NCBI GenBank assembly: GCA_024278765.1
Contig: JAJRSM010000048.1
Span: forward strand, 2,266-66,265
Length of the DNA stretch: 64,000 nt
Source: Deltaproteobacteria bacterium
Lineage (GTDB): Bacteria > Desulfobacterota > GWC2-55-46 > DRQE01
Direction of reading: 5' to 3'
How positions within the stretch are numbered: position 1 is the stretch's first letter; every line of letters begins with the position of its first letter. This document shows, piece after piece, positions 4,137 to 64,000 of the stretch. A program made the position numbers and the translations under genes. The notes beneath the pieces are model-generated. The model had not been told where the DNA came from and searched no databases. It saw nothing but the letters and a program-made list of their open reading frames with translations.

Positions 4137-5443
4137 AAAAGCTCCACTACGTGGACGACCATAGCATCAACGCCGTAACGATGCAGCGCGTCCTTTAGTT
4201 GAATTATACACCCCGGACACGCCGTGGCAACTATATCAGCACCGCTACCCCTTACGCCTTCTGCCTTGATACGCGCAATCTCTATCGACAACTCATAGTT
4301 GGAAAAAGCAAGCCCTCCGCCAAGGCCACAACACTTGCACGGATGCTTCATCCCCACAAGCTCAAGCCCAGAGCTCTCAAGCAATATTCTAGGCTCTTCA
4401 GCTATCCCCTGATAACGCCTCAGATGACAAGGGTCATGATAAGTAACCTTACTGCCATCTTGCGTTATAAGAGGCCTTTCATTATCTTCTATATCTTTAA
4501 CCGGAATATCACCCTCCGGGGCTATCAGTTCGGTTATGTCCCGCACCTTCGCGACAAAAGCATCAACACGTTTTGCCATCTCCGAGTCTTCTTCACCACT
4601 GTCGCAGAGCAGGTCTTTAAATACGTCTTTTAAAGCATGTCCGCAGGTTGCGCAAGAGGTCACGATATAATCGCAGTCTTCTTTTTCAAAGACCTCAAGG
4701 TTTTTAAGGGCATGCTCTCTGGCTGTCTTCTGATCTCCGGCAGAGAGTGCCGGCATGCCGCAACAGCTCTGCGCCTTAGGGATACTCACCGTTGCGCCAC
4801 TTCGCTCCAGAACCCTGACCGTTGCCTCGCCGATATCGGGCAGAAAATAATTAACCCCGCAGCCGACAAAGAAAGATACCTTTGGCTTTGCCGCCCCCTG
4901 CTCGGGACCGCTCTTGCGGGCCTTTGCGGTCTTACTCTCCATAAAAAACCTCTCCGGCAGGTTAGGCACAAGCCTGCCGCCGCCAATAAGCGGAATGGAA
5001 AACCTGCTGACCAGAGCGTGTTCAACAGTACTACCTTTAAAGATTAGGCCTTGCAGCTTTGAGGCGATCTTCATCGATAAAGGACGAAGACGCTCGGAGC
5101 CCAGTAGATTCTTAATAGCCAAAGAGGCAAAAGGAGAGAGACCCTGCTTTGCGATATAACCGGTACGAGCCGCCAGTATCAGTGCCGGAACATCTACGTC
5201 ATTGGGGCAGTTGCTGTGGCAAGAGCCACAGAGCGTGCAGTCCTTTACGTATTTTTGAAATGCCGGGCCGAAAGGAGTGCCACCCATGCCGGCCTCTTTA
5301 AGGCTCGTCTCGGCGAGTGTAACTCGTCCTCGTGGCCCTCCGCCCTCACGCCTGAGTATTTCATAGGACGGACAGAAGCTCTTGCAGGTTCCGCACCTAA
5401 CGCACTTTGAGGCTATATCTAAAAGTTCTTCAACACTCTTCAT
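4133..5443 (-). CDS. glcF: Fe-S oxidoreductase, glycolate oxidase iron-sulfur subunit GlcF-like; two 4Fe-4S motifs plus CCG domains
   Basis: CxxCxxCxxxCP ferredoxin motifs (CVRCGTCKSFCP, CTLCGSCHSNCP) and cysteine-rich CCG motifs (CCGMP, CKCCGLGG). It is adjacent to an FAD-linked oxidase. Confidence 0.75.
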   Translation of the reverse strand: MKSVEELLDIASKCVRCGTCKSFCPSYEILRREGGGPRGRVTLAETSLKEAGMGGTPFGPAFQKYVKDCTLCGSCHSNCPNDVDVPALILAARTGYIAKQGLSPFASLAIKNLLGSERLRPLSMKIASKLQGLIFKGSTVEHALVSRFSIPLIGGGRLVPNLPERFFMESKTAKARKSGPEQGAAKPKVSFFVGCGVNYFLPDIGEATVRVLERSGATVSIPKAQSCCGMPALSAGDQKTAREHALKNLEVFEKEDCDYIVTSCATCGHALKDVFKDLLCDSGEEDSEMAKRVDAFVAKVRDITELIAPEGDIPVKDIEDNERPLITQDGSKVTYHDPCHLRRYQGIAEEPRILLESSGLELVGMKHPCKCCGLGGGLAFSNYELSIEIARIKAEGVRGSGADIVATACPGCIIQLKDALHRYGVDAMVVHVVELL

Positions 5444-6953: not shown

Positions 6954-7637
6954 TTACTTTTCGTCAGGTTTTTTAATCACATACCCAACGCCTCTGACCG
7001 TATGAATAAGCTTTTTAGTCGGATCTTTATCGACCTTATTTCTAAGGTGATTTATATATACGTCAACAACATTAGTCTCACTATCAAAGCCCTGATGCCA
7101 GACGTTCTCAGCAATCAGGGTACGAGACAGAACCCGCTCGGGGTTACGCAGGAGATACTCAAGTAAAGAATATTCCTTTAGCGTAAGCTCTATATCCTTA
7201 CCAGCCCGGCTTGCCTTGCGTGTCATTGAATCTAGGCTCAACCCCTCATACTCCAGAACACTTGAAGCAACCTTTGCAGACCCCCTGCGAAGCAACGCCC
7301 TGATCCTTGCAAGCAACTCTTCAAATGCAAAGGGCTTGGTAAGGTAATCATCTGCGCCAAGATTTAAGCCACGCACCCTGTCCTCTACGCTGTCGCGTGC
7401 GGTTAGCAAGATAACAGGTGCCTTTATTCCGTCCTCTTTGACGATCTTTAAGACCTCAAGGCCGTCTTTTTTGGGCAGCATTATATCCAGTATTATCATG
7501 TCATAGCTGCGTGAGAGCGCGAATTCCTCTCCCTCTATGCCATCAACTGCCAGGTCCACGGTATAACCCTCTTGCTCAAGACCTCTCTTTATAAAACCAG
7601 CTACCTTTCTCTCGTCCTCTATTACTAGAAACCTCAT
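6954..7637 (-). CDS. OmpR/PhoB-family DNA-binding response regulator; no kinase gene is adjacent
   Basis: Receiver domain (MRFLVIEDE...DMIILDIMLPKKDG...DDYLTKPF) plus a winged-helix C-terminus (LSRTLIAENVWH...TNVVDVYINHLRNK). The start codon overlaps the upstream M16 peptidase stop (ATGA). Confidence 0.9.
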   Translation of the reverse strand: MRFLVIEDERKVAGFIKRGLEQEGYTVDLAVDGIEGEEFALSRSYDMIILDIMLPKKDGLEVLKIVKEDGIKAPVILLTARDSVEDRVRGLNLGADDYLTKPFAFEELLARIRALLRRGSAKVASSVLEYEGLSLDSMTRKASRAGKDIELTLKEYSLLEYLLRNPERVLSRTLIAENVWHQGFDSETNVVDVYINHLRNKVDKDPTKKLIHTVRGVGYVIKKPDEK

Positions 7638-11852: not shown

Positions 11853-12575
11853 TTATTCACTTACTTCTATACTGCCGGGGCTCGATTTAATACCTTCCAG
11901 CAACTCATCAAGCGGCATAACGGCAGATATCAGATCTTGGCGTTTAAGGTTAAGCTCGACGGCATCTTTTATAGTAAAATTGCCGCTTCTGGTCCTCTTA
12001 AGTGTTACCAGATGCGCACCCACTCCGAGCTCTACGCCAGCGTCATGGCATATCGACCGAACATAAGTACCGCGCGAGGTCGCTACCCTGAACTCGACAT
12101 ATGGCATATCTATATCCAAGATCTCTAGCTCAAAGACCTCTACCTGCTTTGCCGCACGTTCAACGACAACGCCTTTCCTTGCCAGCTTATAAAGAGGCAC
12201 TCCGCCCTGCTTAACTGCCGAGAACATAGGAGGCACCTGATCTATCTTACCAATAAAAGCCTTCAAAACTCTCTCGACATCTTCTTTCTTTATATCACCG
12301 ACCTCAGACTCAGCCACGACCTTACCCTGCGCGTCATAGGTATCGGTTGATTCACCAAGCTTCATCCGGGCAATATATTCTTTAACGCCACCCTGGAAGA
12401 CCGTCGCAAACTTGGTCGCGCGGTTTATCACAAGCGGCAAGACCCCTGTAGCCAGAGGATCAAGCGTGCCGAGATGGCCGACCTTCTTTGCGCCAAGCCT
12501 GCGCTTGACCGTCGCAACGACATCATGCGAGGTCATCCCGCCGGGCTTATCAACTACAAGTACACCTTCAATCAT
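11853..12575 (-). CDS. truB: tRNA pseudouridine(55) synthase TruB
   Basis: VLVVDKPGGMTSHDVV...GHLGTLDPLATGVLPL catalytic Asp motif. Synteny with rbfA and rpsO. Confidence 0.95.
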   Translation of the reverse strand: MIEGVLVVDKPGGMTSHDVVATVKRRLGAKKVGHLGTLDPLATGVLPLVINRATKFATVFQGGVKEYIARMKLGESTDTYDAQGKVVAESEVGDIKKEDVERVLKAFIGKIDQVPPMFSAVKQGGVPLYKLARKGVVVERAAKQVEVFELEILDIDMPYVEFRVATSRGTYVRSICHDAGVELGVGAHLVTLKRTRSGNFTIKDAVELNLKRQDLISAVMPLDELLEGIKSSPGSIEVSE

Positions 12576-12608
12576 AACAACAAGACTCCTGAATCCTCTG
12601 AAATTCTT

Positions 12609-13606: not shown

Positions 13607-14020
13607 CTATCCCTCTTCCTGCTCCTCTACAACACTGTCGGTGTCACTACCAGGACCATTGCCTTCCATATCATTATTATCTATATCATTAAGTAACTCT
13701 TCAATACGCATCGAGTACTCAAGCGAATCGTCAACCACAAAAGAGATCTCAGGGATGTATTTGAGCTGTACCTTCTTGGCAAGAGTGCGCCTGATATAGC
13801 CACGAGCTCTGTTAAGTGCATGCCCGGTCTGCCTAATTGTTTTTTCATCGCCCATCACGCTAAAATAAATCCTTGCGTGCTTCATATCAGGGCTTAACTT
13901 TACCCGGGTAATGGTTACAAAACCTATCTTTGGGTCTTTGATCTCACCTTGCAGCAACATGGAGGCAACCTCCTGAGCTACAAGATCCCCCACCCTATCC
14001 GAACGTTTATATTTATGCAA
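13607..14020 (-). CDS. rbfA: Ribosome-binding factor A, with an acidic C-terminal tail
   Basis: RSDRVGDLVAQEVASML...FVTITRVKLSPDMKHARIYFSV is a KH-like RbfA fold. An extra acidic tail (DNNDMEGNGPGSDTDSVVEEQEEG) follows. Confidence 0.93.
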   Translation of the reverse strand: MHKYKRSDRVGDLVAQEVASMLLQGEIKDPKIGFVTITRVKLSPDMKHARIYFSVMGDEKTIRQTGHALNRARGYIRRTLAKKVQLKYIPEISFVVDDSLEYSMRIEELLNDIDNNDMEGNGPGSDTDSVVEEQEEG

Positions 14021-14071: not shown

Positions 14072-16381
14072 CTAGAGCTTGGCAGCCTCTTCCTTTATAA
14101 TATAGGCCTCGATAACATCGCCGACCTTAATATCATTATATCCCTCAATACCAATACCGCACTCGTAACCCGAGGCGACTTCCTTGGTATCTTCCTTAAA
14201 TCTCTTAAGAGATGAGATAGATCCCTCATAGATAACTACGCTATCTCTTACGAGCCTTACCTTTGCATTCCTCGAGACCTTACCATCGGTAACGTAAGAT
14301 CCTGCGATAGTACCGACCTTGGTCACCCTGAAGACCTCTCGAACCTCTACGGTTCCTATAGTCTCCTCACGGATGATCGGCTCAAGCAGACCTTCCATAG
14401 CATTATGGATATCATCGGTGAGGTTATAGATAATATTATATAACCTCATATCAACGCTCTCTCTGGCGCAGACCTGAGTTGCATTGACATCTGGTCTTAC
14501 GTTAAAGCCGATAATAATAGCATTAGAGGCCGAGGCGAGCATAACATCGCCCTCGTTAATACCACCGACCGCGTTATGAATAACCTTAAGCCCGACCTTC
14601 TCCGTAGAGAGCTTCAGGAGCGCGTCACGAACAGCCTCCATAGAGCCCTGAACATCGGCCTTTAGTACGACATTAAACTCCTTTACCTCACCGGCTGTAA
14701 TCTGCTCGTAAAGATCTGCAAGACTTATCTTCGAGCTCGATGCCTGCTCCAACTCACGCGCCTTTCTCTGACGCATATTGGTTATCTGCCTAGCCGTTGC
14801 TTCATCTTTGACCGCACTGAAAGTATCCCCTGCTGTCGGCACGCCCGAAAGCCCGAGGATCTTGACAGGCATAGAAGGCCCTGCCTCTTTAACGCGATTA
14901 CCCCAATCGCTAATCATAGCTCTTATCTTACCAAAGTGCTCGCCTGCGACACATGTATCACCGACCTTAAGTGTACCGTTCTGGATAAGCACGGTGGCGA
15001 CAGGCCCCTTGCCCTTGTCAAGCCTTGACTCAACAACAATACCACTAGCAGGGATACCTACGTTGGCCTTAAGCTCTAGGATCTCGGCCTGTAGCAGGAT
15101 CATCTCAAGCAAGCCGGTTATATTCTGCTCTTTTTTGGCAGATACCTCAACAAAGATAGTATCTCCGCCCCAGTCCTCACTGACAAGACCGAACTCGGTC
15201 AAAGATTGCCTGATTTTTTCCGGATTTGCCTCAGGAAGGTCTATTTTATTGATTGCCACAATTATCGGAACATCTGCGGCCTTGGCATGATTTATCGCCT
15301 CTATGGTCTGCGGCATCACTCCGTCATTTGCAGCTACAACAAGTACGACTATATCTGTTGCCTTCGCCCCTCTTGCCCTCATTGCGGTAAAGGCCTCATG
15401 GCCCGGAGTATCAAGGAATGTCACATCACCTTTGTCCAGATGCACATGGTACGCACCTATATGCTGGGTGATGCCACCGGCCTCACCGCTTGCAACCGTT
15501 GTCTTACGTATGGCATCCAGCAGCGAGGTCTTACCATGATCGACATGACCCATTACAGTAACGACCGGCGCGCGAAGATCACCCTCGCCGAGGTCTTCAG
15601 GATTAATGCCAGCCTCCAGCAGTGTCTCCTCCTGCAAGGCCACGCTCTCTACTTCATAGTCATAGTTCTGTGCGATTATCGTCGCCGACTCAATATCAAG
15701 GGTCTGATTGACGGTCGCCATGATACCGAGATCCATCAACTTCCTTATAATCTCATTGGCCTTTACACCGATCTTCTGAGAGAACTCAGCGACACTTATG
15801 GCCTCTGCTATCTTTACAACCCTCTTCTCGGTCCTAGTAACCGTAATCTCTGTCTTCTTAAGCTCTCTGGCAGGAGATATATTAGACCTTCTCCTGTTAT
15901 CACGCATCTGATAACGCTTACCCCTGCGATACATCTGTTTGCCGGGGAAGGTCTTATCTACCTTCTTCACCTCTTTATTAAATACCTTTACCTCACGCTT
16001 GGCCTTGCCCTTATCCTTATCACGGCTATCCTCGCGCACACCATCTGCCTGCACAGGCTTTGCCTCAGGCGACTTGCCCGACGTATCGGCCTTCTTTGCA
16101 AAGGCCTTTGCCGGTTTTTCGCCCCGAGCCTCGGTTGCAGAAGGTTGTACGGAAGCCTCTGCGCCCTCGCCTACCTTTGGCTCGACCTCGACCTTCGACT
16201 CTGGCGCAACGACGACCTCTGGGGCAGCTGCTGCAAGTTCCGCAGCTTCTGCCGCCTTAACGGCTTGTTCTGCAGCTGCCTTCTCCTCTGGAGTCGACTT
16301 TACCTTGCGCCTACGTATAACAGTCTTCTTTATACGTTTTTCTACGACCTTACCTTTTAACTCTATCTCTTTTTCAGTCAT
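14072..16381 (-). CDS. infB: Translation initiation factor IF-2
   Basis: 769 aa. Low-complexity K/A/E-rich N-terminus and G-domain motifs ([24 protein letters not shown]). Sits between ylxR and rbfA. Confidence 0.97.
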
Positions 16382-18096: not shown

Positions 18097-18145
18097 CTCT
18101 TTGCTCTCCTCCTGCCGCCCTCGGGCGGCCTACGTCTATATAAAA

Positions 18146-21377: not shown

Positions 21378-24143
21378 TCACATCAGCTCTATCTCAATCA
21401 AATTATCATTTCTGGGAATATAACTTCTCTCAATTGCAAACTCAACCAGCTTCTCCTGAATCTCACGATAATCAGAGTCCAGATTGCCCACTGCCATCAT
21501 CATTTGCAGGGCCTCGGCCTGCTCCCCTGCCTGATTATATGCAAGTGCCAACTCATACATAGCCCCGATCCTATCCTGATCACTCATCCCCTTTACAGCA
21601 AGTGCCTTTATATAAAAACCAACAGCATCAATGTACTTACCTATAGCTACAGCGCATTGGCCGAGTCTGGCATAAGAATTAAACTCAAAGGCAGCCTCTT
21701 TGGCAGAAAGCTTAAACTCTCTGATGGCATCGTCAAAGAGCTCCATCTCCATATAGGCTATTCCCAGATTAAAATGCGTCTCTACGTCTTCGCGGCTGAG
21801 TTGCTCACCCATCCCGGCCTTAAACTCCTCGACCATACCGCTTGACTCTTCGCTATCAGACCAACTATCGACCAATTGACCCAGAGCCTCTTCAATACCA
21901 AGCTCCTTGGTAAGATCGATAAAACCTTCGGACTCATCTTTTACATCGACACTCTTATCTTCCGATATAATCGCGCCGTCTTCATCACCGGATAACGCAA
22001 GTTCTTCTTCAGTAAAAATCTGCTCAACATGACCTGAGTCCTCCACACCTTCTTCTTCCGCCTCGTCGGAGTCCTCTGAGCCGACCGTAATAACCTCGGC
22101 CGCATCATCCTTAAATAACTCTTCCAGATCATACCCCCCCCCTTCAAGCAAGGCATCAATACCAGCCTCCTTCAAGGCCTCTTCAGGCTCTAAGGCCTCT
22201 TCAAGCTCTAAATCTATTGACACGGTCTCTAGATCTTCTGAAGGTGCATCAGAGTCTAGGTCATCTTCTTTCATAAAATCTTCTGAGATCTCAACCAAAT
22301 CTTCTTCCGTAGAGTCTAAGGCAGATTCATCCTCCTCAGAAACCTGATCATCAGGCTCTATAACCTGCTCTGGTGGCTCTACTGCCTCTTCAAGCTCCAA
22401 GGCCTCTTCAAGGTCTACAGCCAACTCCTCGGGCTCTAGCACCTCTTCAATCTCTAAACTATCAGCGTCATCCACAATCTCAAGCTCTTCTAGCTCTTCC
22501 ATCTCTGGCGACTCGTCTATATCTTCTAGTTCAATCTTCTGATCTTCTTCTAGTACTTCAGCTACATCTTCTTCAAACTCTGTAACCTCAGGCAGTTCGA
22601 TATCCCCATTCGAGATCTCAGCCCCTAACTGCTCCGCCTCAACCACCCCGGATGCCTCTTCAGACCCTACAGTCTCTTCCCCTACCTCGTCTTTAGGGCA
22701 GTCTATATCTAACTCAACGGACTCTTCTTGCTCATCAAGATCAAAATCTTCTTTAATCTCTACTTCTACCCGATCCTCTCCAGGCTCTATCGTCTTTTCC
22801 TCTGCCTCATCTTCCTTCTCATCAGGATCTAACTCGACAGACTTGCCCTCCAAGTCACTATCAAAATCAATATCTTCCTCAAGCTCTACTTCTGCCTCTT
22901 GTGACTCCAAGGCCGCTACGACCTCTTCAGACTCTGTAGCACCTTTACCCTCTTGCGTCTCTTCAGGAAGCTCATCCTCAAAATCGACCTCAAAGAACTC
23001 GTCTTCGCCATCGGCGTAATCAGAGTCAATCTCGTCTAGGTCAATATCAAAATAAAAATCTTCTTCAACCTCGGCTTCAGCCTCTTCAGGCTCTAAGGCC
23101 GCTTCAGGCTCTAAGGCCGCTTCAGGCTCTAAGGCCACTTCAGACTCTAAGGCCACTTCAGACTCTAAGGCCACTTCAGACTCTAAGGCCACTTCAGACT
23201 CTAAGGCCACTTCAGACTCTAAGGCTTCTTCTGCGGGTTCTTCATCCAGCGTCAGCTTAGAGACCACACTCTTTTCAAGGATCTCATCGATGGTAGCCTC
23301 TTCCACCTCGGCTTCTTCTTGTAAACCGCCAAGCTCGCTCTCAAACGCATCGCACAGGCCATCTATCATGGCTCTGGCCTTTTCATTGTCAGGAGCAGCC
23401 TCTAAAATAGCATGGCAAAGTGCCTCTAATTTATCCAGCTCACCAGCTTCTTTAAAAGCATCTATAAGCTCGCCGCCATAACTGGTAAATTTAGAGACGT
23501 CTTCTCTTTCTTTATTTATACCAACAAGCCCTTCCAGCACCCTCACGTCCTTTGGGTACTCGGCATAAAGATCATTTAAAATATTCTCGGCCTTCTCAAT
23601 CTTACCCTTAGCAAGGAACTTCTGAAAGATCCAGCAATAGAGATCCAGAGCGTCATCGCCGTAACCAAACTTCTTCTGCATATCAGCGAGCCTGATCTTT
23701 AACCCGGCATTCTCTGAGTCAATTTCGACCATCTTCTGCAAGAGCTCAAAGGCCTCGTTAGAGCGGCCCTTCTTTTCGTATGTATTGAGGATATAGCTGT
23801 ATTCACCGATGGCATCGGCAATAAGACGTTGCTTTGTGTAAAGATCGGCTAGTTTATTATGGATTTCCAGGTTGGTCTCGTCAAGCTTTAGTACCTGCTT
23901 GTAGACCGCGATGGCCTTTAGGTAAAAGCCCTTGCCGGTATTATACTTGGCAATACTGGTGTATTCCTTTATTGCCTCTTCCTTAAGACCTGTCTTAACA
24001 TATAACTCCCCAAGCCTGAGACGCAAAGAGATATCCGAAGGATCTAGTAAGACAATAGACTTATACTCGGCAATGGCCTTATCAAAGTACCCTTTAAGTA
24101 CAAACTTCTGGGCCTTCTCTATCTGTTTTTCCTTCTTTGCCAT
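21378..24143 (-). CDS. TPR-repeat protein with a roughly 450-aa hyper-acidic low-complexity core (ESEVAL and EPEAAL hexapeptide repeats)
   Basis: 921 aa. TPR-like helical repeats at both ends (YFDKAIAEYKSIVLLDP..., FNLGIAYMEMELFDDAIREFK...). The centre is dominated by E/D with perfect hexapeptide repeats. No transmembrane helix or signal peptide is visible. Confidence 0.8.
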   Translation of the reverse strand: MAKKEKQIEKAQKFVLKGYFDKAIAEYKSIVLLDPSDISLRLRLGELYVKTGLKEEAIKEYTSIAKYNTGKGFYLKAIAVYKQVLKLDETNLEIHNKLADLYTKQRLIADAIGEYSYILNTYEKKGRSNEAFELLQKMVEIDSENAGLKIRLADMQKKFGYGDDALDLYCWIFQKFLAKGKIEKAENILNDLYAEYPKDVRVLEGLVGINKEREDVSKFTSYGGELIDAFKEAGELDKLEALCHAILEAAPDNEKARAMIDGLCDAFESELGGLQEEAEVEEATIDEILEKSVVSKLTLDEEPAEEALESEVALESEVALESEVALESEVALESEVALEPEAALEPEAALEPEEAEAEVEEDFYFDIDLDEIDSDYADGEDEFFEVDFEDELPEETQEGKGATESEEVVAALESQEAEVELEEDIDFDSDLEGKSVELDPDEKEDEAEEKTIEPGEDRVEVEIKEDFDLDEQEESVELDIDCPKDEVGEETVGSEEASGVVEAEQLGAEISNGDIELPEVTEFEEDVAEVLEEDQKIELEDIDESPEMEELEELEIVDDADSLEIEEVLEPEELAVDLEEALELEEAVEPPEQVIEPDDQVSEEDESALDSTEEDLVEISEDFMKEDDLDSDAPSEDLETVSIDLELEEALEPEEALKEAGIDALLEGGGYDLEELFKDDAAEVITVGSEDSDEAEEEGVEDSGHVEQIFTEEELALSGDEDGAIISEDKSVDVKDESEGFIDLTKELGIEEALGQLVDSWSDSEESSGMVEEFKAGMGEQLSREDVETHFNLGIAYMEMELFDDAIREFKLSAKEAAFEFNSYARLGQCAVAIGKYIDAVGFYIKALAVKGMSDQDRIGAMYELALAYNQAGEQAEALQMMMAVGNLDSDYREIQEKLVEFAIERSYIPRNDNLIEIELM
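23080..23222. repeat. In-frame 18-bp tandem repeat, about 7.5 copies, inside the TPR/acidic gene
   Basis: ggccgcttcaggctctaa appears twice and ggccacttcagactctaa five times, plus partial copies. These encode (EPEAAL)2(ESEVAL)5 on the minus strand. Confidence 0.95.
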
Positions 24144-49642: not shown

Positions 49643-49742
49643 ATGGCTACGGACCATCCCAGATGGCTACGGACCACCCCAGGTGGCTTCGGACCATCCC
49701 AGATGGCTGCGGGCTATCTCAGATAGTTTCGGGCATATATTC
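49643..49742. repeat. 20-bp tandem direct repeat array, about 4-5 units
   Basis: atggctacggaccatcccag, atggctacggaccaccccag, gtggcttcggaccatcccag, atggctgcgggctatctcag, then a decaying copy. The core GATGG-N7-CCATC is palindromic. Confidence 0.9.
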
Positions 49743-50141
49743 TTTTCTTGCGGCCTCTACGGCCCTTATAATATCTCCGGCAACTACGATTGCCTCTCTG
49801 GCATCGCGCTCTATTATGACCTCCGATGGTATCCCACCTGGAAGACTATCAGGGAAGCGGGAGGTCTTATAGTGTATATCAAGCCTGCCGGAGGGGCTGA
49901 TAAACTGTTTAAAGGCCTCTTCGTATGTAACGGCACGTTCGAGGAGTTCAACAACAGACTTGGTCTCGTGTGTATCTTCTTTTTTCAGGAAGAGATATGC
50001 ACGAAGTGACTTTGCCGCTCCCTGCTGCGCAAGAAAACATGCAGGTGCAAAAAAACCACCTTCCAGATTCCAATCAGCTGCCTTTAGATCGTACTCGGCC
50101 TGCCTTAACCAGCGTGCCGATTCCTTTGCAAGAACTTCCAT
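49719..50141 (-). CDS. HEPN domain protein with no adjacent nucleotidyltransferase
   Basis: 140-aa all-helical protein (EYDLKAADWNLEGGFFAPACFLAQQGAAKSLRAYLF...). A candidate R-x(3-4)-H HEPN motif is at GRLDIHY. No MNT partner ORF was found within 300 bp on either side. Confidence 0.55.
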   Translation of the reverse strand: MEVLAKESARWLRQAEYDLKAADWNLEGGFFAPACFLAQQGAAKSLRAYLFLKKEDTHETKSVVELLERAVTYEEAFKQFISPSGRLDIHYKTSRFPDSLPGGIPSEVIIERDAREAIVVAGDIIRAVEAARKEYMPETI

Positions 50142-56786: not shown

Positions 56787-57197
56787 ATGGCCGATAACAG
56801 AATGCTATCTAGTATTAACGTAACGCCTTTTGTGGATGTCATGCTGGTGCTACTCGTGATCTTTATGGTTACGACCCCTTTAATGGAGACAGGCATTGAC
56901 GTAAACCTGCCTGAAGTCGAGGCTGGCTCGGTCGAGGGTCGAGACGAACCCATTATAGTATCGGTCGATAAAAAAGGTGACGTCTTCATCAACAAAAAAA
57001 AGGTAAGCCTCAGTAAACTCAGAGGCAACCTTACCGCTATCGTAAAGAGAAGAAAAGACAAGACCGTCTACCTGAGAGCAGACGAAGCTGTCCCGTACGG
57101 CAAGGTAGCAAGAACAATGGCAACCATTCGCTCATCAGGGATAAAAAAGATAGCAATGATTACAGAAACTCCGACAGGTGGCAGTAACAGAAAATAA
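56787..57197 (+). CDS. tolR: Tol-Pal system protein TolR (ExbD/TolR family)
   Basis: INVTPFVDVMLVLLVIFMVT is the conserved transmembrane segment carrying the Asp. 136 aa. Confidence 0.92.
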   Translation: MADNRMLSSINVTPFVDVMLVLLVIFMVTTPLMETGIDVNLPEVEAGSVEGRDEPIIVSVDKKGDVFINKKKVSLSKLRGNLTAIVKRRKDKTVYLRADEAVPYGKVARTMATIRSSGIKKIAMITETPTGGSNRK

Positions 57198-57213: not shown

Positions 57214-57385
57214 GATGGTTCAAGCCATCAGTCGATGGTTCAAGCCATCAGTCGATGGTTCAAGCCATCAGTCGATGGTTCAGGCCATCAGTCGATGGTT
57301 CAGGCCATCAGTCGATGGTTCAGGCCATCAGGCGATGGTTCAGGCCATCAGGCGATGGTTCAGGCCATCAGGCGATGGTTCAGGG
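57214..57385. repeat. 20-bp tandem direct repeat array, about 8.5 units, in the tolR-tolA intergenic region
   Basis: gatggttcaagccatcagtc x3, gatggttcaggccatcagtc x3, gatggttcaggccatcaggc x2 plus a partial copy. The core GATGG-N6-CCATC is palindromic. Variants appear in ordered blocks of three. Confidence 0.95.
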
Positions 57386-60847: not shown

Positions 60848-61996
60848 TTGAGTATCATGACTACCGACGTATCCATAGTAAGGTGCGAGAGCTACGAGAT
60901 AGACCTTGTAAGACGCGCTGTAGAGGAATCTATCGAGTTAATCGGCGGTGTGGAGCGGTTTGTAAAGCGTGGAGAGCGACTTCTACTCAAACCTAATATG
61001 CTTGCCGCAAAAGAAGTCTCAGCTGCCGTCACTACGAATCCGGCTATAGTCCGTGCCGTGGCCGAGATTGTAAAAGACGCAGGTGGTATACCTGTAATAG
61101 GAGACAGCCCCGGAATGGGCTCAGCCCTTAAGGTCGGTAAGAAGTGCGGTATTTTCGAAGTTGCAGAAGAGCTCGCAATTGAATTTACTCCACTCTCAAC
61201 ACCTGTGGATGTCGAGGCCTCTGAAGGTGCTATCTTCAAACGTCTGGAGATCGCCAAAGAGGCTCTAGAAGTAGATGGTATAATAAACCTGCCAAAGTTT
61301 AAGACTCACGCGCAGATGTTCCTGACTATGGGGGTTAAGAATATCTTCGGCTGCGTGCCGGGCAAGCGTAAGCTCCAATGGCACTTTAGCGCAGGCATTG
61401 ACTCAACACATTTCGCAGGGATGATCCTCGACCTATACCTCTACCTGCGCCCTCGCCTTACCATCATGGATGCTATTATATCCCTGGAAGGTAACGGCCC
61501 TATGAGCGGAGACCCCAGGCAAACCAACTTTATCGCGGCCTCACCAGAGGCGATAGCACTGGACCGGGTCATGATAGAGCTAGTGGGTAGAAAGGTAGCT
61601 GAAGTACCTATAATTCAGAACGCAGAGTGGCGCGGCATTAAGGCAGCAAAACTTGAAAACATAAAGATCCGTGGCGCGGGTATAGACGACTTTTGGATCA
61701 AGGACTTTAAAGTACCTCCGACCTTGCATACCAACTTTGCTAATTCGCTACCTAATTTTTTAGAGAAGAGACTCCGGAAATCCATCACCTCGCGCCCACA
61801 GATCAAGCAATCGCAGTGCACAAAGTGTGGCCTATGCATAAAAGTATGCCCGCTTGATATCATCAACAGAATTGAAGGCAGTATATATATAAACCATACG
61901 GATTGCATCAGGTGCTTCTGCTGCCAAGAAATGTGCCCGTGGAAGGCCATCGATATAAAAGAAGGCTGGCTTAAAAAGATATTACCCGGACTATAA
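60848..61996 (+). CDS. DUF362 domain protein fused to a 2x[4Fe-4S] ferredoxin domain
   Basis: The DUF362 N-terminal pattern (LLKPNM...GDSPG) is assigned from memory. C-terminal CTKCGLCIKVCP and CIRCFCCQEMCP motifs. Confidence 0.65.
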   Translation: MSIMTTDVSIVRCESYEIDLVRRAVEESIELIGGVERFVKRGERLLLKPNMLAAKEVSAAVTTNPAIVRAVAEIVKDAGGIPVIGDSPGMGSALKVGKKCGIFEVAEELAIEFTPLSTPVDVEASEGAIFKRLEIAKEALEVDGIINLPKFKTHAQMFLTMGVKNIFGCVPGKRKLQWHFSAGIDSTHFAGMILDLYLYLRPRLTIMDAIISLEGNGPMSGDPRQTNFIAASPEAIALDRVMIELVGRKVAEVPIIQNAEWRGIKAAKLENIKIRGAGIDDFWIKDFKVPPTLHTNFANSLPNFLEKRLRKSITSRPQIKQSQCTKCGLCIKVCPLDIINRIEGSIYINHTDCIRCFCCQEMCPWKAIDIKEGWLKKILPGL

Positions 61997-62105
61997 AAAC
62001 CTCTAAGGTTTTATGGCCTTAGAGCCGAATTAGTCATAGATACCACTCTAGGAAACCGCCGTGACAACTACGCTAAGGCGGAGGCTTGATCTTACTTAAG
62101 AGCTT

Positions 62106-62220
62106 GTCTGTCCATGACAGTTTGATCCGCCCACGGCGGTTTTGATCCGTCCACGACGGTTTTGGTCCGTCCACGGCGATTTTGATCCGTCCACGGCGAT
62201 TTTGATCCGCCACGACAGTT
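62106..62220. repeat. 20-bp tandem direct repeat array, about 5.5 units, directly abutting the asmA ribosome-binding site
   Basis: tttgatccgcccacggcggt, tttgatccgtccacgacggt, tttggtccgtccacggcgat, tttgatccgtccacggcgat, tttgatccgccacgacagt. The array ends 1 nt before GGAG at 62221-62224 and the TTG at 62231. Confidence 0.9.
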
Positions 62221-62230
62221 GGAGACGACC

Positions 62231-64000
62231 TTGCTGCATCCAATAAGACATCTAAAGAAGAAGCCCATCTCTATCTTTATAGTATTCTTACTCATTGCGG
62301 GTACATTTCTCTTATTTTCTTATATAAGTATCGATATAACTGCGCACAAGGCATCGATAAAAGCCCACATTGAAGAAAATATTAACGCAACGATTGAGTT
62401 TGATAAAGCAATGGTTCGCCTACTGCCGTACCCAACGGTCACGGTAACAGAGCTTGCGATCTTTAGCAAAGGAGACGCTATTATAAGGAGCGGATCTTTA
62501 AAGATCTCAGTCTCTCCTATTGCCCTTCTAAAAAAACAAATCAATATAAAACGTCTAATTGTAAAAGACGGTGTAGCCCTGATAAAAAGATATAAAGACG
62601 GCAGCATTAATCTCTCTAAACTCAGGAAAGAGACCACAGGGACGGGGACGGTAGGGTTTCGTCCTGAAGAATTCAGGCTCATCGGTGGGCACTTTCTCTT
62701 TATCGATGAAAAAACAGAGAACGGCGGCCTTGAGATCTCAGAGGTCAGAGCCTACCTGCATAGCACCGGGCGCGGCTATACCTTCAGCCTCGGCGGTATC
62801 CTTGGCAAAGAATCGACCTTCATTCTATCCGGCCTTACCTCGCCGGAGCAGACAGGGCCGCGCGTATCCGGCACTATGGACCTGACAAATATAGAGGTTG
62901 CTACCATAAGACCATACTTGCACAAGGCCGTCGCAGATATCGCGACAGAAGGCTCGCTCGGAGCAAGCCTTGATTTTTCCTTTTCAGGCACCGAGGCTCA
63001 ACTAAACAGCGGTACGATCAAAGGCTCACTCTCATCAAAACGCATAGTACTCGCCCCTCCATATCCAATCAAAGAAAAACTGCATTCTCCAAGTAGCAGT
63101 GCCAATCTGGAGGTCGCCTGGAGTGCCGAGAACTTCCTATTTGCCCTCAATGATATCAGCGTTAAAGTAGCAGACCCCGAGACACACATCAGGCAAATTG
63201 AGCTCGGCGGCAAAGTCAAACTCAGTACCACCAAGGCACATGACTCAGGGATGATAGAGGCCGACCTGTATACCTCAGAGGTCGAGACAAAGTACCTGAA
63301 AAATCTAATCGACCTGAATAGCGCGCCCGTGGGTATTCGTCGTACCTTGGCTAACCTAAAAGAGGTCGAAGGCAAGGTAGCGATAAGACGACTTATAGTC
63401 TTATCGAGCTTAAGCCCACGCGTAAAAACCGGCAGGCGTGATAAAAAAATAGCACTCAAGCTGGAGTTGCTGGATGCAGGAATTACGCACAATGCCCTAG
63501 GCCATAAAGTCACCAGCCTAAGCGGTCATATTACCTATAAAGACGGCGAGCTGAAGCTGCTGGAGATAAAAGGACGCTACGGCGAGGAAGCCATAAAATC
63601 ACTGAATGGATCGATCTCTATTGGCCATGAACCGACTGTCAAACTCTCTCTTAACGCAGATCTAGATGCTGACGCGATCCTCAAAGAACTTAGAGCTTCA
63701 GGAAATATCCTACAGAAAAAATACATAAGAGCAAAAGGGCTTATCGGTATAAAACTGGAACTGGACGGCTCGCTTGCGCAGCTTAAATTCGGCAACTCAA
63801 AAGATAAAAAAACACAAAACACTAGAAAACTTCTTATCAACAGCACTCTGGACCTTACGCACACACACCTTGAGCTTGGTAACGGGCTAGACAAAGAGAT
63901 GGACTTCCCCTTGATCATCGAGGCAAAGACCCATGTCAAGGCAGGTACGATTACCAGCAATGCTCAGATCACAGCAGGCAGTTCGTCGGCAAAGGTCAAA
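62231..64000 (+). CDS. asmA: AsmA-family outer-membrane biogenesis protein; the gene runs off the window edge at 64000
   Basis: Open frame from the TTG at 62231 to the window edge (more than 590 codons). N-terminal transmembrane helix ISIFIVFLLIAGTFLLF, then an AsmA-like N-terminus (IKAHIEENINATIEFDKAMVRLLPYPTVTVTELAIF...LSVSPIALLKKQINIKRLIVKDGVALIKRYKDGSINLSKL). The ORF track lists no ORF that runs off the window edge. Confidence 0.75.
   Translation, partial: MLHPIRHLKKKPISIFIVFLLIAGTFLLFSYISIDITAHKASIKAHIEENINATIEFDKAMVRLLPYPTVTVTELAIFSKGDAIIRSGSLKISVSPIALLKKQINIKRLIVKDGVALIKRYKDGSINLSKLRKETTGTGTVGFRPEEFRLIGGHFLFIDEKTENGGLEISEVRAYLHSTGRGYTFSLGGILGKESTFILSGLTSPEQTGPRVSGTMDLTNIEVATIRPYLHKAVADIATEGSLGASLDFSFSGTEAQLNSGTIKGSLSSKRIVLAPPYPIKEKLHSPSSSANLEVAWSAENFLFALNDISVKVADPETHIRQIELGGKVKLSTTKAHDSGMIEADLYTSEVETKYLKNLIDLNSAPVGIRRTLANLKEVEGKVAIRRLIVLSSLSPRVKTGRRDKKIALKLELLDAGITHNALGHKVTSLSGHITYKDGELKLLEIKGRYGEEAIKSLNGSISIGHEPTVKLSLNADLDADAILKELRASGNILQKKYIRAKGLIGIKLELDGSLAQLKFGNSKDKKTQNTRKLLINSTLDLTHTHLELGNGLDKEMDFPLIIEAKTHVKAGTITSNAQITAGSSSAKVK

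Follow-up and report, generated by a model that had tools for sequence, protein, structure and literature searches.

The tandem array that lies directly upstream of an asmA-family gene in the window (the whole stretch of DNA analysed here, 64,000 nucleotides long) looks like a REP-like hairpin minisatellite and not like a dedicated platform for the control of asmA. Its units belong to a family built on a 13-nt hairpin with the stem CCRYC/GRYGG, followed by a linker of 6-8 nt, which recurs in three arrays of the window and in intergenic gaps of related genomes. The reading that we favour, with a probability of about 0.55, is that the array arose by local amplification of this lineage-specific hairpin unit, and that it is probably transcribed and possibly modulates read-through or mRNA stability.

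Results

Position and units of the array preceding asmA

The array (array 3) is non-coding and consists of six head-to-tail units of about 20 bp at positions 62108-62220 of the plus strand; TRF called it at 62121-62214 with a period of 20, 4.8 copies, 90% matches and a score of 146. Both this call and the register of the units bear out the first-pass annotation of the DNA, which had placed a 20-bp array directly 5' of the ribosome-binding site and TTG start of an asmA-family gene. The features are:

62108-62120, plus strand: unit U1, CTGTC-CAT-GACAG
62127-62139, plus strand: unit U2, CCGCC-CAC-GGCGG
62147-62159, plus strand: unit U3, CCGTC-CAC-GACGG
62167-62179 and 62187-62199, plus strand: units U4 and U5, both CCGTC-CAC-GGCGA
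62207-62218, plus strand: unit U6, degenerate, CCGCCACGACAG, abutting the ribosome-binding site
62221-62233, plus strand: ribosome-binding site and start block, GGAG and TTG of the AsmA/DUF748-family gene

The consensus unit combines a hairpin of 5 bp and a 3-nt loop, CYGYC-CAY-GRCRG, with a T-rich linker of 6-7 nt (TTTGAT, TTTTGAT or TTTTGGT), a typical unit being a CCGYC-CAC-GRCGG hairpin followed by TTTTGAT. Downstream of U6 come TT, the GGAG ribosome-binding site (62221-62224) and the TTG start (62231), and the ORF opening at this TTG matched DUF748 with an E value of 9e-14 and AsmA with an E value of 5.5e-7, the latter at 29.2 bits, slightly below the Pfam cut-off of 29.8. The block CCACGACAGTTGGAGACGACCTTG at the asmA ribosome-binding site and start is conserved in the window and in the relatives L001 and L004 (L004 having a single substitution); of this block, L006 also has the 3' part, GACAGTTGGAGACGACCTTG.

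Upstream of the array lies a DUF362/4Fe-4S gene (60848-61996), the last one in a tolQ-tolR-tolA-tolB-cpoB-like cluster. The leader between this gene and the first unit carries two more hairpins:

62001-62024: 8-bp hairpin, CTCTAAGG-N8-CCTTAGAG, directly 3' of the DUF362 stop codon
62056-62081, plus strand: leader hairpin CCGCC-N16-GGCGG, with the stem class of the repeat units

The hairpin behind DUF362 is conserved in L001, L004 and L010 and, read from 62024 to 62001, is followed by the U-run GUUUUUAUAG on the minus strand only; it could be the terminator of an antisense transcript, and no gene annotated on the minus strand ends there. The leader hairpin shows paired stem changes, namely CCUCCG/CGGAGG in L010 and CCCCG/CGGGG in L001. 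In L006 and L012 the leader is absent.

One hairpin family behind three arrays

TRF also recovered the two further 20-bp arrays that had been reported for the window, and domain matches identified the genes that the three arrays precede as pilD, a TonB_C/TolA-like gene and an asmA-family gene, in agreement with the earlier assignment to pilD, tolA and asmA. Both arrays, like array 3, lie between co-oriented genes:

49643-49734, minus strand: array 1, gap between a HEPN gene and pilD, CYAYC-TGR-GRTRG + TCCGWAG
57214-57384, plus strand: array 2, gap between tolR and the tolA-like gene, 8.6 units of CCATC-AGKC-GATGG + TTCARG

In the direction of the genes beside them, array 1 reads CCATC-TGG-GATGG + TCCGTAG and array 2 reads CCATC-AGTC-GATGG + TTCAAG. 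The unit of array 3 had been described as different from the other two, a distinction that does not survive the comparison, all three arrays sharing the hairpin core CCRYC-N3-4-GRYGG, in which positions 3 and 4 change together. Perfect copies of this core numbered 16 in the window against 0.30 in shuffled sequence, an enrichment that is partly circular given that the motif was derived from these arrays; the fact that three arrays with supposedly different units fall into one stem class of 1 in 256 is not circular. Each clade locus contained 1-5 perfect copies and each of five outgroup loci 0-1. Judged from the common core, the units of the different loci are homologous, and their shared descent accounts for the common 20-bp period, for which neither helical phasing nor any other physical constraint is needed.

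Array 2 is built of blocks of identical variants (3 x TTCAAG/AGTC, 2 x TTCAGG/AGTC and 3 x TTCAGG/AGGC), which indicate recent stepwise duplication. In array 1 the TGA stop codon of the HEPN gene constitutes the loop of the first hairpin. This solitary gene (49719-50141, minus strand) encodes a protein 94-96% identical to its orthologs in L004 and L006, compared with a protein identity of only 79-84% for pilD and argJ beside it.

Covariation of the stem arms

In 37 distinct units the three variable stem positions make up 111 pairs, of which 97 are Watson-Crick, where independent arms would give 56.7 +/- 5.3; none of 10,000 arm shuffles, which overstate the independence of units that are related by duplication, reached this count. 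Eight stem variants differing by transitions occur (CCATC, CCACC, CCGTC, CCGCC, CTGTC, CTGCC, CTATC and CTACC), all of them as perfect hairpins, and this diversity requires several independent paired changes. The same picture emerged when 35 units, taken from six related Thermodesulfobacteriota genomes, were aligned: paired cells amounted to 94.9% (84.2% in shuffles), the covariation score was 0.530 against 0.310 (none of 500 shuffles scored as high) and four of the five pairs had changes on both sides; when the partners were slid by 1-3 columns as a control, 18-51% of cells were paired. We conclude from this pattern of substitutions that it is the hairpin or palindrome that has been preserved. 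Stem mismatches comprise 4 G.U pairs on the sense strand and 10 on the antisense strand, with no preference for sense-strand G.U, and the aligned units show a preserved dyad symmetry that does not single out a strand or a molecule. Paired changes of the arms could also be generated in the absence of selection by templated quasi-palindrome correction.

Copy number and turnover in related genomes

Relatives were recovered by TolB-, DUF362- and GH57-based searches. The gene order of the window is found in a small, uncultured clade of Thermodesulfobacteriota (L001, L004, L006, L010/L011, L012 and L017-L020), several members of which come from hydrothermal-vent metagenomes. The DUF362-asmA spacer holds the following units, as counted in metagenome assemblies, in which short tandem repeats can be mis-sized:

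Window: 6 units, CAC/CAT loops
L001: 4 units, the first and last in common with the window
L004: 5 units, including CTGCC-CAC-GGCAG, the first and last in common with the window
L010/L011: 3 units with TAA loops, CTGTC-TAA-GACAG and CCGCC-TAA-GGCGG
L006: 2 units
L012: 3.5 units, CCGCC-TGA-GGCGG-ATCAAAG, beginning at the DUF362 stop codon

Spacer lengths across the genomes are 234, 198, 221, 175, 174 and 159 nt. In L012 the array fills the whole spacer, and its linker ATCAAAG is oriented as the reverse complement of the TTTTGAT of the window.

Other gaps of the cluster vary in the same way. L001 and L010 have about 3 units in the tolR-tolA gap, where the window has 8.6; L004 and L006 lack units there and have arrays in the tolQ-tolR gap instead, and L004 also carries four units 5' of secA and two arrays 5' of pilD. 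One unit type, CCGCC-TGA-GRCGG-ATCA, is present at non-orthologous gaps, namely 5' of secA in L004, between tolQ and tolR in L004 and L006, and 5' of asmA in L012. No family units were found in L005 and L013-L016, whose DUF362 is about 47-61% identical and which keep the DUF362-asmA pair, or in the available sequence of the TolB outgroup L002, the contig of which ends before asmA. Since relatives have 2-6 units and outgroups none, the expression of asmA is independent of a particular array.

At the fourfold-degenerate sites of DUF362, identity to the window is 75% for L001, 70% for L004 and 81% for L010, compared with 48% for L006 and 40% for L012, where these sites are saturated. In the close set the leader from DUF362 to the first unit has an identity of 78-81%, about that of the fourfold sites; its conservation was accordingly rejected as a sign of constraint, identity in the four close genomes being near neutral, and the units shared by the window, L001, L004 and L010 may be a matter of simple inheritance. 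Between these close genomes copy number has shifted two- to three-fold and the L010 loops have changed together from CAC to TAA, a turnover of units that is concerted and minisatellite-like. The comparison demonstrates that copy number, loops and linker orientation turn over fast, the pattern being that of growth and shrinkage by slippage or unequal recombination with homogenisation by conversion. Units nevertheless persist at the asmA and tol gaps of L006 and L012 despite the saturated silent sites, which suggests long-term maintenance or repeated re-seeding.

Several other repeats and irregularities were observed along these loci. In the tolR-tolA spacer of L010 (6431-6475) the neighbouring CCATCGTTGATGG and CCATCAACGATGG are exact reverse complements, so that the loop is flipped, which suggests an inversion or inverted duplication between the hairpin arms as the possible origin. 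The second array 5' of pilD in L004 (1426-1517; GCTGCC-GGA-GGCAGT + CCCAAA, period 21, 4.4 copies) has GGA loops that recall CsrA/RsmA-binding hairpins; in the window this place holds a single degenerate unit. In L006, arrays of an 18-bp hairpin-forming unit stand on either side of the DUF362 gene in inverted orientation (12426-12592 and 13744-13850): CCTGAAAAGGCCTCTAAG is repeated 9.3 times at the 3' end of the cpoB-like gene and its reverse complement about six times directly 3' of the DUF362 stop, in place of the leader of the window; similar 18-bp (six-codon) repeats are found at the cpoB 3' ends of L004, L010 and L012. In L001, runs of about 100 N (1518-1620, 4266-4385, 6987-7089, 14177-14279 and 15637-15739) mask the tolA-tolB junction (one run) and the cpoB 3' end (one run), where repeats are not assessable. 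Finally, silent-site identity between the window and L004 is 0.49 in tolR (56787-57197) and 0.70 in DUF362 (60848-61996), and the divergence from L004 is therefore mosaic along the cluster, possibly through recombination.

Distribution in the window

Family units are located between 49.6 and 62.2 kb, with a single outlier at 18.1 kb:

18115-18128, minus strand: solitary family-type hairpin CCGCC-N4-GGCGG in the rimP-nusA gap, just 5' of the nusA ribosome-binding site

This hairpin apart, the other 50 kb or so of the window has no family units, and none were found in about 10 kb of extra flank beyond its left edge, as covered by three relatives. Searches with each array's own motif returned no dispersed solitary copies above chance. 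Chains of at least four regularly spaced hairpins were confined in the window to the three arrays, and chains of three occurred at chance level; in L001 the N-masked runs gave artefactual chains with this detector. The arrays had earlier been tied to envelope genes, and this link is lost when the window is taken as a whole, its lptA/lptC genes and its entire type IV pilus cluster (pilQ, pilM, pilN, pilY1, pilX and minor pilins) being devoid of arrays. The family is concentrated in a neighbourhood of about 13 kb (pilD, secA, tol and asmA) and is, in the sequence available, not a repeat spread over the chromosome, nor does it mark envelope genes in general.

No transposase was detected among the roughly 45 window genes scanned against Pfam, a set that leaves out about ten genes (at approximately 24.1-31.8 kb and a few others). 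Rfam 15 covariance models gave no match in the window at gathering thresholds and, at E<=10, a single chance CRISPR-DR match (E = 8.2) in 61900-62350. Exact-protein look-ups with the DUF362 and TolR proteins of the window returned no match. The window also has a repeat of another kind, 8.1 copies (97% identical) of an 18-bp unit at 23080-23225, inside a gene for a 921-aa TPR protein (21378-24143, minus strand), where by frame reading it codes for six residues, LESEVA-like.

Curvature, promoter, folding and terminator predictions

Array 3 of the window contains four T4 tracts, whose summed phasing at 10.5 bp reaches 79% of the perfect value. Among the orthologous arrays those of L001, L006, L010 and L012 have no such tract and that of L004 has one, and the intrinsic curvature formerly proposed from the T-runs is a side effect found in the window genome alone. 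No sigma-70-like promoter was predicted in the DUF362-asmA spacer, and in L012 there is no room for one because the array fills the spacer from the DUF362 stop codon. Moreover, the stems vary at three of their five positions and are therefore a poor fit to a sequence-specific DNA-binding site; the divergent promoter region at 55.5-56 kb contains no units. These results speak against the array as a regulatory platform, the first role that had been suggested for it. The other suggested role, a structural element of the 5'-UTR, fared better: the data are compatible with structure in a leader or intercistronic RNA, but not with an element of fixed size, the number of units being variable.

Folded singly as RNA, the hairpins of array 3 are predicted to have free energies of -2.5 to -7.0 kcal/mol at 37 C, and the array as a whole folds no better than its shuffles (z = 0.01). 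The good score of array 2 stems solely from its alternating inverted arms, which can nest, and such folds are uninformative on a defined structure. A terminator consensus scan flagged U2 and U3 (two of the six units, with a stem followed by TTTT), and terminator-like sites numbered 14 in the region against 16.0 in shuffles. The U-tract is not conserved, the L012 linker being ATCAAAG and the other arrays likewise lacking a U-run. Four further candidates were rejected: CsrA-type GGA loops are present in one L004 array only, GATC/Dam sites occur in some arrays only, the loops do not fit ANTAR dual hairpins, and the lengths of the DUF362-asmA spacer are not frame-preserving, as a coding repeat would have them.

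Discussion

Array 3 as an intercistronic hairpin array and the alternatives

Since no promoter is evident and the L012 array fills the spacer, array 3 is probably transcribed within a tolQRAB-cpoB-DUF362-asmA message. In this RNA its units would fold into consecutive weak stem-loops with U-rich single-stranded linkers in between, and the series would end at the asmA ribosome-binding site; hairpins of the same class stand last before a ribosome-binding site elsewhere as solitary examples, such as that of the rimP-nusA gap. A REP-like effect would be the likeliest outcome, in which the hairpins, as barriers or sites of processing, would determine how stable the upstream mRNA segment is relative to the downstream one. 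The orientation hairpin-then-UUUU might in addition bring about a weak attenuation of read-through into asmA, additive per unit. Exact copy number would not be critical for either effect. It is tempting to go further and to regard the arrays as a previously undescribed class of RAYT-independent, locally spreading hairpin minisatellites co-opted as copy-number rheostats, in which each unit would add a weak stem-loop (attenuator or processing site) and slippage would heritably tune the expression ratios of neighbouring genes of envelope biogenesis (tolQ/R/A, secA, pilD and asmA) in this clade; we hold this extension to be doubtful.

Second in our rating, and a clearly less probable explanation than the transcribed, modulating array, is a neutral minisatellite that grew out of one functional hairpin, an intercistronic hairpin having been amplified by slippage into a functionless passenger whose arms are restored by template switching. 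The two- to three-fold changes in copy number at 70-81% silent-site identity, the identical-variant blocks of array 2, the L010 loops flipping to their reverse complement, the lack of a G.U bias on the sense strand, the unremarkable whole-array fold and the outgroups that do without arrays are all in keeping with neutrality. What such a passenger leaves less well explained is the persistence of units at the asmA and tol gaps of L006 and L012 (silent sites at 0.40-0.48), the same orientation of the units relative to transcription in five of six loci, the retention of at least two hairpins at most occupied gaps and the maintenance of all eight stem variants as perfect hairpins. The units might instead be genuine REP/BIME elements, non-autonomous palindromes spread by a RAYT encoded elsewhere in the genome. 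Near-identical units in non-orthologous gaps of different genomes would be expected from mobility, two units of array 1 have GTAG directly 5' of the hairpin, and the complementary stem sub-variants, tiny loops and clustered reiteration match the published descriptions of REPs (PMC3733652). We nonetheless consider this origin unlikely in view of the absence of a conserved GTAG or CGTC tag, the head-to-tail arrangement, which is reported as rare for REPs (PMC3733652), the confinement of the family to about 13 kb and the lack of a transposase among the roughly 45 window genes scanned.

The features on the minus strand raise the question of an sRNA gene in the DUF362-asmA spacer, antisense to the asmA leader and ending at the hairpin behind DUF362. 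On that strand alone GUUUUUAUAG follows the hairpin (62024 to 62001), the units read as hairpin plus ATCAAAA, which is the orientation of other loci, and the alignment fold includes a helix with G.U pairs that are A.C on the plus strand. Such a gene is most improbable all the same, as no minus-strand promoter was predicted within 330 nt, single-sequence folds do not favour the minus strand, the alignment consists of four close sequences with little covariation, the leader is missing from L006 and L012, and Rfam gave no match. To a DNA-level regulatory platform for asmA, made of phased protein-binding sites or of DNA curved by T-runs, we give the least credence of all. A period of 20 bp is near two helical turns, the four T4 tracts of the window reach 79% of full phasing and each unit is a 13-bp dyad resembling a dimer-binding site; against these points, T4 tracts number 0-1 in all five orthologous arrays, stems vary at three of five positions and loops differ among genomes, the arrays are intercistronic and stay out of the divergent promoter region at 55.5-56 kb, and beside array 3 no promoter is predicted, with no room for one in L012.

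Significance and comparison with known systems

If the units act in RNA, they would provide a compact and naturally tunable setting of expression ratios inside operons, as well as a clean natural case of stem covariation maintained in a tandem repeat. If they are neutral, they would show how a 13-nt palindrome seeds fast minisatellites that spread between neighbouring intergenic gaps, serve as a useful strain marker in an uncultured, vent-associated lineage and caution against inferring 'regulatory platforms' from periodic DNA. Either way, they have no bearing on a long-standing open question. Our literature search on tandem stem-loop repeats in Deltaproteobacteria found nothing that matches them.

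The closest parallel is offered by REP sequences, whose superfamilies have stems of 5-13 bp, loops of 2-3 nt, sub-families with complementary stems and tandem-reiterated clusters (Di Nocera et al., PMC3733652); one family with a 5-bp stem is mostly clustered and was found via a tandem-repeat database, a GTAG/CGTC tag marks more than 90% of the members of most families, and REPs mostly form inverted (HH/TT) dimers, head-to-tail arrangements being rare (PMC3733652). The units described here resemble REP/BIME elements (PMC3733652; REPINs, PMC3116915) in being short GC-rich extragenic or intercistronic palindromes with tiny loops in tandem clusters. Further likenesses are the complementary stem sub-variants, a copy number that varies between strains and the stem-loops expected in polycistronic mRNA, and the palindromy that defines REPs is evident from the 5-bp stems, the eight complementary variants, the 94.9% pairing and the intergenic location of all units. 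They differ from REP/BIME elements in consisting of a 13-nt hairpin only and in being strictly head-to-tail, with a period of 19-21, instead of forming HH/TT dimers. Also unlike in REPs, GTAG stands 5' of the stem in just one of 35 distinct aligned units (two physical copies, in array 1). The commonest class of the four bases at this place is NAAG (about a third), with NCAG, ACCA and TGAT common too, and the tetranucleotides found besides GTAG are GAAG, GCAG, CAAG, AAAG, TAAG, ACAG, ACCA and TGAT. Another difference is that the units occupy a neighbourhood of about 13 kb and are not dispersed in the available sequence, with no RAYT seen there.

REP sequences in the malE-malF, puf and pap operons act as intercistronic stem-loops that set segmental mRNA stability, and intercistronic hairpins flanking a single-stranded linker protect upstream 3' and downstream 5' ends, with partial attenuation possible. 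Array 3 shares with such elements a location between genes that are probably co-transcribed, the A/U-containing single-stranded linkers between hairpins and a last hairpin just 5' of the downstream ribosome-binding site; it differs in that those elements usually consist of one or two stable hairpins, whereas up to nine weak ones make up a homogeneous array here. U2 and U3 resemble intrinsic terminators in having a GC-rich 5-bp stem, a 3-nt loop and UUUU, but their hairpins are far weaker (-2.5 to -7 kcal/mol) and the U-run is only 4 nt long. A CRISPR array was dismissed, the 6-8 nt linkers being themselves repeated, with no unique spacers (CRISPR spacers measure about 26-72 bp). In iteron- or centromere-like arrays, such as the 20-bp parC repeats, constant repeats are bound by a protein encoded nearby, and this class was set aside as well, the stems being variable at three of their five positions and the vicinity lacking par and rep genes. 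Bacterial minisatellites or VNTRs, for their part, have in common with the arrays the head-to-tail repeats of 18-21 bp, the fast change of copy number and the concerted evolution of units; the present family stands apart in that the repeated unit is a palindrome whose arms covary and that units of the family are found at several gaps close together.
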